DNA from: Candidatus Saccharimonadales bacterium
GTDB taxonomy: Bacteria > Patescibacteriota > Saccharimonadia > Saccharimonadales > SZUA-47
Direction of reading: 5' to 3'
NCBI GenBank assembly: GCA_041737385.1
Contig: JBGSRU010000009.1
Span: 71,015-135,014 of the forward strand
DNA length: 64,000 nucleotides
The notes below the pieces were generated by a model. The model did no database searches, had not been told where the DNA came from, and saw only the letters and a list, made by a program, of their open reading frames with translations. The position numbers were made by a program, and so were the translations under genes. Position 1 is the stretch's first letter. Each line of letters begins with the position of its first letter. Of the stretch, positions 56,375 to 62,658 are shown piece after piece.

Positions 56375-57220
56375 ATGCTAGAAAAAATTAAAGAAAAAAT
56401 ATCATTTAAACGTTTCTTTTCGGCGGTGGGACTCCTATCGTTAGTTTTTTTGTCTCACGTCGCGCCTGCAACGGCACAGTCAATCACTCAAGGCTATGGT
56501 AGCGAAGAAACTATTCAGCGAGCAACTATCGTATCGTTGACACTCGACGATGCAAAAAAAGTTGAACCAACATCTCTTGATAATGATGAGCGGATGCATG
56601 GAGTAGTAGTGAGCCAAAACGATGCGCCGTTTACGCTCTCTTCTGAAGACGAAAAGACCTTCGTTGCGACAAAAGGTCGATTTGAAACATTTGCAAGCAA
56701 TGAAAACGGTGCAATACAACCCGGAGACTATGTCACGATTTCACGAGTTGCAGGGATAGGCATGAAAGCAGGTGAAAACGAACCATTTGTCATCGGAAAA
56801 GCTATCTCTGGTTTTGACGGCGAAACAGGAGTTTTGAGTACAACCAACATTGACTCAGGCGGCGAACAGAGAAAAGTTTCGATTGGGCGAATTCAGGTTG
56901 ATGTTGGTGTTGGCGGAAATCCGCTGCTGAAGAATTCAGACTCTAACCTTCCGGGGTTTTTACAAAAAGCGGCAGAGACGATTGCGCAAAAATCACCAAT
57001 AAATCCCATTCGAATATACATCAGTCTGTTCATCCTAATCGTGTCGGCTGTGGTCGCCGGAGTACTGCTCTACTCAGGGGTGAGAAGTGCAATTATTTCT
57101 ATTGGACGTAATCCACTGTCCAAAAAATCGATCACAAAGAGCCTTTTACAGGTGATTATGACCAGTATTATCATTTTGTTGTTAGGTATTTTTGGGGTAT
57201 ATTTATTACTAAGAATCTAA
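56375..57220 (+). CDS. secreted/membrane protein with a C-terminal two-helix hairpin
   Basis: Signal peptide (...LSHVAPATAQS), a ~190-aa extracytoplasmic domain, then two TM helices joined by the loop SIGRNPLSKK. Confidence 0.55.
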   Translation: MLEKIKEKISFKRFFSAVGLLSLVFLSHVAPATAQSITQGYGSEETIQRATIVSLTLDDAKKVEPTSLDNDERMHGVVVSQNDAPFTLSSEDEKTFVATKGRFETFASNENGAIQPGDYVTISRVAGIGMKAGENEPFVIGKAISGFDGETGVLSTTNIDSGGEQRKVSIGRIQVDVGVGGNPLLKNSDSNLPGFLQKAAETIAQKSPINPIRIYISLFILIVSAVVAGVLLYSGVRSAIISIGRNPLSKKSITKSLLQVIMTSIIILLLGIFGVYLLLRI

Positions 57221-57251
57221 GCATAAGCGGTGGGAGCGCTACAGATATAAA

Positions 57252-57881
57252 GTGAGTTTAGGAATATTAGCTGCATTATTAGTCGTGATCACCGGTGTGT
57301 GTGGGCTTGTGCTGTGGTTTATTTTCCATACACCACATGTGAAAAAGCTTAAATCAGACCCGAAAAATGCCCTAGAGGACTTAAGTAATCGAGCAAAAGA
57401 TGACGTTGAACATATCTTTAATGATGAATTTCGTGAGGAACTACGAAACCGTGGCCGACTGCACTTTGAAAAGATTATTGGTGAGAATGCCATGTTTTTG
57501 CAGCAAGATCTACGATTAACAACAAGCCAGCTCAACGAGTTCATGAAGAACGAGATTAGCAGTGTTTTGAAAGATGAGTTTTCAAAGTACGAAGAATCAA
57601 TAAATGACGCAAAGCAGCTTGCAATTGAATCTATTCAGAAAACACAAACAACGATTGAGCAACAACGAGAGCTGTTGACGCAACAACTTAACGAACAGCT
57701 GTCTACAGAGAAGAGTCGTAGCATGAGTCGGTTTGAGTCACATATGGCCGATATAGTGAATCACTACGTGCTTGAGGCTGTAGGAGAGCAAATTGATCTG
57801 AGTGAACAGTTGGAGTTTATCTTGTCTCAAATGGAACGAAACAAGGAAGCCATCATTAAGGACATCAGAGATGGAGCATAA
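57252..57881 (+). CDS. atpF: F-type ATPase subunit b-like protein (N-terminal TM + long coiled coil)
   Basis: GTG start, a single N-terminal TM (ILAALLVVITGVCGLVLWFIF), and a Glu/Lys/Gln-rich helix to the end. It occupies the position before the delta-like gene. Confidence 0.5.
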   Translation: MSLGILAALLVVITGVCGLVLWFIFHTPHVKKLKSDPKNALEDLSNRAKDDVEHIFNDEFREELRNRGRLHFEKIIGENAMFLQQDLRLTTSQLNEFMKNEISSVLKDEFSKYEESINDAKQLAIESIQKTQTTIEQQRELLTQQLNEQLSTEKSRSMSRFESHMADIVNHYVLEAVGEQIDLSEQLEFILSQMERNKEAIIKDIRDGA

Positions 57882-58467
57882 CGAAAACAAGCTCTCCTTA
57901 CCTGTTGGAATCGTAAGCCCAACTGATATTGCTCGACTGACACGTGAAATTGAAGCTATTGAAAATTATTTTCGAGAACAAAGAATCAGACAAGCAGGTG
58001 AACCAAACTCTATGCCACGTTTAAGTAAGCTTATGGATCAAATGGCTGCAGAAAACCAACTGAACCTGCTCGATACTGCAGATCGCACAAAAATACTTGA
58101 AGTCTTAGAGAAGCTTCATTCATCCGCTCCAGTTATGCATATAAGTTTTAGCGTTGATCCGCCAGGCCCTTACGTCCAGAAAATAGTGTCGTGGTTACGG
58201 CAAAACATTGATCAGCATGTGTTGGTAACGGTTGGGTTACAGCCAAATATTGGTGCAGGTTGCGTTGTGCGCACCACTAACAAGTTATTTGATTTTTCTC
58301 TGAGAGAATTTTTTGCGCAGAAAAGAGAATTTTTTATTAAAAAAATGCACGAGTCAATCACAGAGCAAGGCGCTGAAGAAGTGCTAGTAGCGCAACAAGA
58401 AGTCTCCGTAAGCCCTGAGTCAGTTTCAGATACTCCAGTAGCAGTACAAGTGAACGGGGCTTCATAA
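57871..58467 (+). CDS. atpH: F-type ATPase subunit delta (OSCP)-like protein
   Basis: The C-terminal ...[31 protein letters not shown]... resembles the conserved delta C-terminus (IGG..V..G....D.S). The start overlaps the b stop, and the stop overlaps the alpha start (TAATG). Confidence 0.5.
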
Positions 58468-60892: not shown

Positions 60893-61011
60893 GCATGTTT
60901 ATTGTAGCTACGATGCTTAGGAAGAGCAGCCGTAACTGGGAATTTATTTCACAGTCCTGCGCGATGAGAAATCGAGAATCGGCTTCTTATATGAATGGAG
61001 GTCGACTGTGA
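60889..61011 (+). CDS. 40-codon ORF exactly bridging atpG and atpD (speculative)
   Basis: Its ATG overlaps the atpG stop (ATGA at 60889-60892) and its TGA overlaps the atpD GTG start (GTGA at 61008-61011). Sequence: [40 protein letters not shown]. Confidence 0.2.
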
Positions 61012-62315
61012 GTGTAGGGTATGTTATTTCGATTAAAGATCTCGTGGTGCGAGCGCAGTTTGATGAAGAAGCACCTCGTATAGGTGAGTTGATAGTTGTC
61101 GACAACACATTTGGTACGAGCCTGCTCGTAGATCACCTTGAGCCAGGCGGTATCGCGTTTTGCCTAAATGTTCGCTCTGATAGGCGTGTAGAAAAAGGAA
61201 TGCCTGTACAAACGACAGGTAAGGGTATCGAAATACCAATAGGGGACCCTACTATTGGACGTATTCTTGATGCACTCGGTGATCCGCTTGACGGGCAGCC
61301 AAAACTCGAAGGAGATGGTGTCCTGCGCAAAGATATCCTAAAAGTCCCAGCGCGTAGTAATGAGTTCACGATTGCAAAACCAGAAATACTTGAGACAGGG
61401 GTCAAAGTAATTGATTTCTTCACTCCGTTCGTGAAGGGACGTAAAATTGGTATTATTGGCGGCGCGGGTGTCGGTAAGACAGTGCTTACAATGGAACTTA
61501 TTAACAATATTGCCCAAACTGGTGGTGGTCTATCTTTCTTTGCTGGTATTGGTGAGCGTATTCGCGAAGGGCACGAACTGTGGGATACTCTACGGGAAAA
61601 CGACCTCCTCAAAAATACTTGCATGTTCTTTGGCCAAATGAATGAGAACCCCGTTCAGCGTGCTTTGATTGGTATCAGCGCAGTTGCTGGCGCTGAATAT
61701 TTCCGTGACGAACAGAAAAAAGATATTCTATTCTTCGCTGATAACATGTACCGGTTCGTGCAAGCAAGTAACGAGCTTTCAACTATTCTCGACCAAGTTC
61801 CGAACGAAGGTGGCTACGAACCAACAATTTTCTCCGATGTAAAACGTCTGCAAGATAGATTAAGCTCAAACGAAAAAGGATCAATCACTAGTGTTCAGAC
61901 AATCTATGTTCCGGCTGACGATCTATCTGATCCAGCGGTACAGATGATTCAGCACGAGCTTGATTCGACTATTGTGTTGTCACGTAAAGTTGCAGAACAA
62001 GGTATTCGTCCCGCCGTCGATTTGAGTCAAACGTCTTCTTCGCTGCTCACACCAGACATAGTTGGAGAACGGCACTACGTTCTCAGTGTGCAAGTCATGG
62101 CACTATTACAGAAGTATGAATCGCTACGAGGTATTATTGCGATTATTGGGGAAAACGAGTTGTCTGCAGCCGACCGTGCTGACTATGCAAAAGCAAAGAA
62201 GCTTATCAAAAACTTCACTCAAAACATGAGTGTGATGACAAAGCATAACGGCGTAGAAGGTGAATTCTCGACAAGGGAACAAACGCTTGCATCAATTGAA
62301 GAAATTATAGTCTAG
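61008..62315 (+). CDS. atpD: F1 ATPase beta subunit (divergent, short)
   Basis: P-loop [12 protein letters not shown], ...[11 protein letters not shown]..., ...GQMNENP..., ...[12 protein letters not shown]... and the DELSEED-equivalent NELSAAD. GTG start after GGAGG. Confidence 0.9.
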
Positions 62316-62325
62316 GAGATAAACT

Positions 62326-62658
62326 GTGGCTACGAGGCAAGATGCAAGCACCGGCGAAATGATTAACGACGAATCTGCTGGAGACGATAAGAAACCAGTT
62401 ATCGCAGACGATCCTACGTTGATGCAGATTAAGGTATATTCACCGTACCAAGTATATTTTGATGAAAAAGCGACAAGCATCAGTGCCATAAACGATACCG
62501 GTCCGTTTGACATCTTAAAGGGACACCATAAGTTTCTTACGCTATTAAATCCGTGTGAGCTATCAATCCTCTCAGAAAAAGGCGAAGAAAGAATCAAAAT
62601 TTCTCACGGCATTATGTATGTTAAAGAAGATAAAGTTATCGTGTTTCTTGATGTTTAG
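62326..62658 (+). CDS. atpC: F1 ATPase epsilon subunit (beta-sandwich only)
   Basis: ...MQIKVYSPYQVYFDEKATSISAINDTGPFDILKGHHKFLTLLNPCELSI...HGIMYVKEDKVIVFLD matches the epsilon N-domain pattern. There is no C-terminal helical hairpin. GTG start after TAGGAGA. Confidence 0.65.
   Translation: MATRQDASTGEMINDESAGDDKKPVIADDPTLMQIKVYSPYQVYFDEKATSISAINDTGPFDILKGHHKFLTLLNPCELSILSEKGEERIKISHGIMYVKEDKVIVFLDV

Follow-up and report, generated by a model that had tools for sequence, protein, structure and literature searches.

An F1-like ATPase module without recognisable subunits a and c beside surface fibre and Pam pilus genes in Saccharibacteria

Described ATPases and the module in the window

The canonical F1Fo ATPase is encoded in the order atpBEFHAGDC, and two kinds of relatives of this enzyme are known to stand beside it as additional operons. 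The N-ATPase (atpDCQRBEFAG) is a second, laterally mobile F-type operon with true a and c subunits carrying a Na+ site, with AtpQ and AtpR, and with a gene order of its own; the F1-like X0 ATPases of Mollicutes are seven-gene clusters in which F1-like alpha, beta, gamma and epsilon subunits are joined to unrelated membrane proteins, and these extra copies are believed to spend ATP on a function at the cell surface. In bacteria of the candidate phyla radiation (CPR), reviews state that most members keep an F-type ATPase whose role is unclear, and in the complete WWE3 genome described by Kantor et al. (2013) the single ATPase operon contains "a, b, c" genes that cannot be recognised as such, one of them a transmembrane (TM) protein common to CPR (WWE3, OP11) ATPase operons that was assumed to be the ion-translocating c subunit. 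More recently, structures of the PamA and PamB filaments were presented for Ca. Mycosynbacter amalyticus in a preprint (Troman et al. 2026, doi 10.64898/2026.03.03.709456), in which ATP synthase genes are reported to accompany the pam genes constantly, as is a gene for a tail-fibre-like protein that is named as central to the neighbourhood; the authors interpreted the pam-adjacent ATPase genes as serving ATP production or metabolism without analysing the ATPase itself, found no machinery for retraction or for crossing the envelope, and proposed that a specialised trans-envelope machinery does not exist and is not needed. Here we describe a 64-kb stretch of contig JBGSRU010000009.1 from a Candidatus Saccharimonadales bacterium (the window, meaning the whole stretch analysed), in which a tight seven-gene run at 56375–62658 on the plus strand encodes, in order, a 281-residue membrane protein (X281), a b-like protein, delta, alpha, gamma, beta and epsilon. 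We read this module, with a probability of about 0.55, as a paralogous F1-like ATPase that lacks Fo and serves a fibre or pilus at the cell surface, and not as the cell's ATP synthase.

From the c slot on, the gene order of the module is that of the canonical operon, and its alpha, beta, gamma and delta subunits and the N-terminal domain of epsilon are homologous to their canonical counterparts. X281 (56375..57220), taken as the membrane subunit on the strength of its structure model, its family and its constant position, is followed on the same strand by a candidate b-like peripheral stalk whose position and topology match atpF (57252..57881), a divergent delta/OSCP recognised by comparing its family profile with the PDB (57871..58467), an F1 alpha-like subunit (58467..60032; PF00006, E = 1e-67), a gamma-like central stalk (60029..60892; PF00231, E = 4e-32), an F1 beta-like catalytic subunit of 435 aa (61008..62315; PF00006, E = 5e-64) and an epsilon consisting of the beta-sandwich only (62326..62658; PF02823 over aa 33–108). 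The spacings between these genes, from X281 to epsilon, are operon-like (+31, −11, −1, −4, +115 and +10 nt), and the genes are taken to be co-transcribed with X281; a scan for promoters and terminators gave no enrichment over shuffles. Where the canonical enzyme has a subunit a, an ion-binding carboxylate and the GxGxGxG motif, the module has none of these; its c-like hairpin, which resembles c in length, predicted topology, modelled fold and R(Q/N)P loop, is fused to an extracellular domain of ~155 aa, and its genes are linked to that of a surface fibre.

Searches of the window with seven c subunits and the E. coli a subunit (tblastn) gave no match, and a listing of all multi-TM and small two-TM open reading frames (ORFs) in the window held none that is a- or c-like, the multi-TM ORFs being major facilitator superfamily (MFS), ABC-2 and P-type ATPase proteins. 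An earlier note on this DNA had read 56375–62658 as an F1-type operon without a or c, its b-like gene preceded by a 281-aa secreted or TM protein and a cysteine desulfurase, and had recognised no a- or c-like ORF anywhere in the 64 kb; the ORFs lie where it placed them, both searches agree with it, and the same upstream order was seen in 80 of 80 related loci. Neither c nor a (including a of the PF00119 type) was found in ~160 related loci, 80 of them from genomes and 80 from metagenomes. Three observations go beyond that note: a c-like hairpin lies inside X281, a fibre gene lies downstream of the module, and the module is linked to a pilus operon.

When aligned to F1 sequences of the PDB, beta has its catalytic residues intact (Walker A GGAGVGKT, catalytic Glu in GERIREG), and alpha keeps the Arg finger (...SVTRVGG); the alpha P-loop is GDSKSGKST, as had been noted from the sequence. 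The short beta with NELSAAD in place of DELSEED, also pointed out previously, proved to be a family trait: the C-terminus of beta is ~25 aa shorter than in canonical beta, and NELS(A/P)(A/S)D, the 435-aa length and the short epsilon are kept across relatives. Epsilon was said to lack the regulatory C-terminal helices, and indeed it matches PF02823 only, with the same architecture in all relatives; its N-terminal extension is of low complexity. Two descriptions stood in part. The Lys/Asp/Glu-rich tail of alpha is present from ~aa 477 but is not conserved, many relatives ending in ...VELKK, and we rejected this Lys/Glu tail as a defining feature because of its variability. Delta and b had been called barely recognisable, which holds for the b-like protein; delta is divergent yet real by profile, since 13 PDB delta/OSCP chains are the top 13 matches of its family profile (best E = 1.8e-4), while its single-sequence support is weak (NCBIfam delta E = 3.5e-4, below the cut-off; Pfam OSCP E = 0.027). 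The b-like protein matches nothing in Pfam, NCBIfam or the PDB, even when its family profile is compared with the PDB, and its single-sequence AlphaFold2 (AF2) model finds no Foldseek match; the model has helices at aa 3–25 (an N-terminal TM helix), 58–178 (~120 residues) and 183–206. The protein carries an unusually conserved motif, FREELRNRGRLHFEKIIGENAMFLQQDLRLTTSQLN. In addition, a segment of ~50 residues (DVEHIFNDEFREELRNRGRLHFEKIIGENAMFLQQDLRLTTSQLN) is nearly invariant among type-A relatives, far above ordinary b subunits, which hints at a specific binding partner. The rotary set as a whole (gamma, the foot domain of epsilon, delta and the b-like stalk) is retained under purifying selection.

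Against the NCBIfam equivalog models of the canonical enzyme the subunits of the module all score below cut-off (alpha 393 vs 484 bits, beta 410 vs 463, gamma 95 vs 194 with TIGR01146, epsilon 47 vs 67). The same is true of the N-ATPase models (alpha TIGR03324 334 vs 750, beta TIGR03305 375 vs 752, TIGR03323 26 vs 282 bits), of the Type 3 mycoplasma models (NF045934 and NF045936, for MSC_0618/MSC_0619; beta 362 vs 570, alpha 251 vs 520 bits) and of the Type 2 gliding ATPase models (NF045863 and NF045858, for MMOB1660/1670; 328 vs 600 and 344 vs 850 bits). Both sets of mycoplasma models score the module's alpha and beta lower than the canonical atpA and atpD models do, and the G1 beta of Mycoplasma mobile (PDB 9io5) scores 279 bits, below all canonical betas and against 355 bits for canonical beta. 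Identity to the FliI/type III secretion system ATPases was rejected, NCBIfam scores for these being far below those for F1. The earlier note had weighed a simple operon split against a non-canonical membrane partner as in the mycoplasmas. The second idea is favoured, because X281 is a fixed component that is c-like without the carboxylate, the modules are paralogous, and they are linked to the fibre and to Pam; the proposed kinship is not, the module lying outside the Type 2 and Type 3 families. Unlike the mycoplasma clusters it keeps a delta homolog and a c-like partner, and it belongs to a separate lineage; it is found in Saccharibacteria and other CPR bacteria and not in Mollicutes. We conclude that it works like an F1-like X0 ATPase, while in these comparisons it falls outside canonical F1Fo, N-ATPase and both mycoplasma families.

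The unrecognised genes of the WWE3/OP11 operon of Kantor et al. fit X, the b-like gene and delta as found here, and that operon is probably the same module. The module is partly foreshadowed by the 2013 note and by the remark on the neighbourhood in the 2026 preprint, but its atypical nature and likely machine role are undescribed: the missing a and c, X281 and the paralogous duplication are absent from the preprint's account, and in the searched literature we found no description of missing a and c, of the c-like fusion or of the paralogy.

X281, the membrane protein in the atpE position

X281 consists of a signal peptide (aa 1–34, cleavage at ...ATA/QS), an extracytoplasmic beta domain (aa ~35–190), a short helix (aa 194–204) and a C-terminal helical hairpin (aa 211–281, with helices 211–245 and 247–280), as seen in an AF2 model with a mean confidence (pLDDT) of 81. 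The ectodomain of ~155 aa resembles phage capsid cement or decoration proteins: Foldseek matches it to chain 8hdt_G of the cyanophage Pam3 capsid (E = 6e-4), and relatives of X281 repeatedly give sub-threshold Pfam matches to the phage cement families PF23982, PF22758 and PF09956. For the hairpin, F-type c subunits were the only hairpin matches among the top 50 in a Foldseek search of the PDB (Chloroflexus, bovine, yeast, chloroplast and Acetobacterium), with target-normalised TM-scores of 0.83–0.89, root-mean-square deviations of 1.1–1.4 A and 19–22% identity, at E-values of only 0.08–1. Pfam searches with the isolated hairpin and with the ectodomain gave nothing useful, and PF00137 was not matched.

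The most conserved part of the whole X281 family is the hairpin tip, S-I/V-G-R-N-P-L-S-K. Its GRNPL core (G244-R-N-P-L248; codons 57104..57118, plus strand) is invariant in 26 of 26 close and 12 of 12 divergent members and occurs in 494 of 501 collected proteins. In c subunits the invariant R(Q/N)P loop contacts gamma and epsilon. Because X281 has a signal peptide and the loop is positively charged, both ends of the hairpin are predicted to lie outside and the GRNPL loop in the cytoplasm, as in subunit c. With hhalign, GRNPL falls in register with the RQP of c (P = 0.02, and 0.005 when the profile is broadened; a score as high as the observed one arose in only 2 of 200 column shuffles). Controls by circular permutation are not informative here, since the loop motif survives in them. 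Weak tblastn matches over the full length recur between the hairpins of X proteins and mitochondrial c, whose loop likewise reads RNP.

The resemblance does not extend to the ion site. The core of the second TM helix (TM2) contains no Asp or Glu, the aligned carboxylate position being occupied by Ile, Thr or Ser, and for this reason X281 cannot carry ions as c does. A conserved polar residue is found in TM2 at R+14 (Q259), mostly Gln, with Glu or Asp in some members and Arg or Ser in others. We considered Q259 as an ion site and rejected it, both for its place at the cytoplasmic boundary of the membrane and for the Arg or Ser that some members have there. X281 is c-like, then, by position and loop motif and by its predicted topology and modelled fold, with homology to c unproven. 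It is nonetheless part of the machine and not a bystander, because in all module types it is the fixed first gene directly upstream of the b-like gene.

Module types, fibre and pilus neighbours, and the rest of the window

The X281 family is large, with 1115 homologs at 90% clustering and 6503 representatives at 50% clustering (E <= 1e-3), 472 of these at E <= 1e-30; its named members are almost all Saccharibacteria/Saccharimonadales, with one labelled Parcubacteria. The order metRS–tatD–orf–cysteine desulfurase–X–b–delta–alpha–gamma–beta–epsilon is invariant in 80 of 80 species-level genome loci, and whether the 281-aa gene is conserved upstream in relatives, a check called for in the earlier note, is answered by these loci together with three divergent types. 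Divergent X proteins (30–35% identity) head the same seven-gene block in other contexts, as in type C (locus L081) and type B (L084), and further variants occur in metagenome loci, giving at least three divergent module types overall. Between types, alpha is 49% and beta 54–57% identical, while X, b and delta share only 22–35%; identity of beta to E. coli beta is 39–45%. The metRS–tatD–cysteine desulfurase flank is not kept in types B and C; X and the fibre gene are.

Types A and B also occur together in one metagenome-assembled genome (MAG), GCA_036379375.1, on contigs that match in GC content (56.5% and 57.6%). There, L084 is a type-B module with fibre, PamT and pilin genes of its own, and L085 ends inside the b-like gene of a type-A module. 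The two modules suggest duplicated surface machines in one cell, and their coexistence points to functional diversification of a specialised machine.

Convergent with epsilon, the window carries a tail-fibre-like protein of 322 aa (62715..63683, minus strand), whose N-terminal cytoplasmic tail is joined by a single TM helix to an extracellular beta-helix and a C-terminal domain, and which has weak Pfam matches to Bactofilin and Gp53-like_C. The window then ends 170 nt into the first pilus-side gene (63831..64000, plus strand, start only), which by tblastn is homologous to a 260-aa TM protein of locus L004 (48% identity over 56 aa, E = 3e-9). In L004 that protein is followed by PamT and a Pam pilin-like protein, and NCBIfam names the secreted neighbours of modules in L004 and L084 "CPR-type pilus protein PamT" (NF058579, 218 and 265 bits, respectively) and "Pam pilus system pilin subunit" (NF058581). 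Downstream of type-A modules a fibre protein is found in 49 of 50 loci, a secreted PamT-like protein of ~255 aa in 47 of 50 and a secreted pilin-like protein of ~410–430 aa in 46 of 50. The type-B locus has other flanking genes but again homologs of the fibre (35% identity, E = 7e-34), PamT-like (2e-32) and pilin-like (3e-15) proteins, and of the 17 type-B-like metagenome loci whose sequence reaches far enough past epsilon, 12 have the module, an opposite-strand fibre gene, PamT and two pilin genes in succession. A closer bond between X and the fibre is seen where X genes are orphans: in L148 (9887–13214), L161 (10001–13819) and L137 (3803–7043), X has no F1 genes beside it and is directly followed by a gene for a membrane-anchored fibre of 770–960 aa, recognised by a hidden Markov model (HMM) of the fibre C-terminal domain in L161 (E = 3e-27) and L137 (E = 3e-20). 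X and fibre thus look like the core pair. The reading with the best support is that of a paralogous F1-like ATPase without Fo, with X281 as its membrane partner and with a functional tie to the fibre and, for most lineages, to the Pam pilus as well.

Several observations were made along the way. Giant proteins of 790–1650 aa with a Pro-rich N-terminus follow some modules in place of the short fibre and the pam genes (L139 15846–20804, L099 15809–20710, L142 7459–11344), and the fibre-family HMM did not match them. Between tatD and the cysteine desulfurase, two small ORFs at 54270–55142 (orf154 and orf127) have no Pfam matches; orf127 is found in nearly all 80 loci, and the two hypothetical genes at the corresponding position in Southlakia, SEML1_0661 and SEML1_0662, are listed as growth-defective or essential in a transposon-sequencing (Tn-seq) table. 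In the preprint on the Pam filaments (doi 10.64898/2026.03.03.709456), Supplementary Table 1 gives PamC as QHN42421.1 (119 kDa, beside pilM), which fits neither the pam numbering QHN43268–43274 nor the text; this is probably a table error, and QHN43268.1 (36.5 kDa) may have been meant.

Elsewhere in the window, large serine recombinases with a Resolvase N-terminal domain lie beside tRNA genes at 11486–13198 (with tRNA-Glu, 13158–13232) and at 35807–37471 (with tRNA-Phe, 38226–38301), the latter in a region of 33–36% GC at 34–38 kb as compared with 41% overall; the two regions are possible integrated elements. A 789-aa protein with TrwB/TraG-D coupling-protein and HerA-like domains (3437–5806) may belong to the unusual type IV secretion system (T4SS) of Saccharibacteria. 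On the minus strand, a D-2-hydroxyacid dehydrogenase fused to a histidine-phosphatase (phosphoglycerate-mutase-like) domain (15058–16710) adjoins genes for enolase, pyruvate kinase and phosphoglycerate kinase, and a baeRF (bacterial archaeo-eukaryotic release-factor-like) protein (44371–45528) is encoded between an MFS transporter and a heavy-metal P-type ATPase. At 38508–41728, genes resembling those for cyclopropane-fatty-acid synthase and amine oxidase are clustered with a DUF1365 gene, which one would not expect of an organism regarded as incapable of fatty acid synthesis.

Proposed function and its alternatives

One could envision the dedicated ATPase that we favour as operating in the following way. 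X281 would oligomerise into a c-ring-like rotor or base whose RNP loops bind gamma and epsilon. No ion would be translocated, since the module has neither a subunit a nor a carboxylate in mid-membrane, and the enzyme would run in the direction of hydrolysis only, which fits the joint loss of the C-terminal helices of epsilon and of the DELSEED acidic patch; with both of these gone, ATP hydrolysis would probably be unregulated. Hydrolysis would turn or strain the X ring against the b–delta stator, and the extracellular crown would hand the work to the membrane-anchored tail-fibre-like protein, the Pam pilus base, or both. The fibre might thereby be rotated, tensioned or retracted, or be helped through the wall as it assembles. 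A more ambitious version of this scheme, which we consider unlikely, makes the module an F-type rotary motor that applies its torque on the outside of the cell: driven by ATP, gamma and epsilon would rotate the X281 ring while its crown of phage-cement-like domains grips the fibre or the base of the Pam pilus, the TM helices of the fibre perhaps sitting in the lumen of the ring, and the motor would spin, wind or retract an appendage with which episymbiotic CPR bacteria seize their hosts.

Several points weigh against a dedicated machine built on a c-like ring. The coupling of the ATPase to fibre and pilus is suggested by gene linkage, which does not prove that they are physically coupled, and 5 of the 17 type-B-like loci have no pam genes nearby; these encode a giant surface protein instead or have a fibre gene upstream. 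The hhalign probability for the hairpin and c is only 2–7% and is driven by the loop; the HMMER profile of the X281 family, run against all PDB chains, gave a chance match only, with no c subunit. The helical hairpin is a generic fold: ECOD places T4SS pilins together with c subunits as well, and one X relative weakly matches T4SS_pilin. The b-like protein is a candidate b by its modelled shape and topology, and a one-TM stator without subunit a offers no obvious anchor for torque. Finally, the evidence that such a module coexists with a separate enzyme is indirect, as it comes from M. amalyticus and not from the window's own genome.

That evidence bears directly on the possibility that the module is after all the housekeeping F-type ATPase or synthase, extremely divergent or with a split Fo, in which X281 would be an odd c, a would be encoded elsewhere or replaced, and the enzyme would still move ions to generate a proton motive force or maintain pH homeostasis. 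The best family matches of its subunits are canonical atpA and atpD, reviews hold that most CPR bacteria keep an F-type ATPase, the only operon of the WWE3 genome of Kantor et al. has unrecognisable a, b and c, and the polar TM2 residue at R+14 is conserved and is Glu or Asp in some members. However, the middle of TM2 has no acid, the polar site sits at the cytoplasmic boundary with Arg or Ser in some members, an a-like gene was found in none of the ~160 loci, one MAG carries two paralogous modules, and the linkage to fibre and pilus is tight. Moreover, the proteome of M. amalyticus contains abundant alpha (QHN42722) and beta (QHN42726) subunits, this beta being of canonical size (50.2 kDa, as compared with 47.7 kDa for beta of the window), and their genes lie ~550 genes from the pam genes QHN43268–43274 (doi 10.64898/2026.03.03.709456), which is indirect evidence that the pam-adjacent ATPase genes are a second set. 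Southlakia has the same metRS–tatD–cysteine desulfurase stretch without the module, and at another locus a canonical atpZ-a-c-b-delta-alpha operon, all of it dispensable. A canonical operon is thus probably encoded elsewhere in such genomes, as an additional enzyme and not as the missing half of the module, and we regard the housekeeping role as quite improbable.

Alternatively, the module may energise the surface system without rotating, X281 serving as a platform or anchor whose likeness to c is convergent, and ATP-driven conformational changes being passed on through the membrane so as to assist with the export, folding, glycosylation or insertion of the fibre protein and the pilins, in analogy to force transmission by the gliding ATPase of Mycoplasma mobile. 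The linkage to fibre and pilus genes speaks for it equally, the statistics for homology to c are weak, no obvious partner would let the stator resist torque, and the orphan X–fibre pairs suggest that the fibre is the primary partner of X. But the full rotary set has been kept, conservation within X is highest at the loop whose counterpart in real c-rings binds gamma and epsilon, and donor-strand-exchange pili need no ATP in known systems; we consider this explanation unlikely. Very improbable, in our view, is a mere conservation of synteny, in which X281 and the fibre would form a surface system and the genes from b to epsilon a separate, membrane-tethered soluble F1 ATPase with an unrelated function. 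Gene order in this lineage is highly conserved in general, the upstream metRS–tatD–cysteine desulfurase genes being equally constant, and X is also found without F1 genes beside it; yet X stays joined to the b-to-epsilon block in three types with different flanks, lies 31 nt from the b-like gene on the same strand, and is kept together with the fibre in types B and C where the housekeeping flank has been lost.

CPR bacteria are mostly without respiratory chains, and reviews ask why their "ATP synthase" genes are kept. On the reading that the module is a dedicated, Fo-less ATPase, at least one widespread class of these genes cannot encode a proton-coupled synthase. The class spans thousands of protein clusters and at least 255 genomes at species level, and surveys of "F-type ATPase completeness" therefore conflate two different machines. 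The Pam pilus, for which its discoverers found no energy source, and the conserved fibre protein gain a candidate for one. If X forms a ring, an F-type rotor would have been re-used for mechanical work across the membrane, parallel to and independent of the mycoplasma motors; and should torque indeed be delivered outside, the module would join the flagellum and the archaellum as a third kind of rotary machine at the cell surface, and would supply the "retraction machinery" that has been missing for the Pam pilus.

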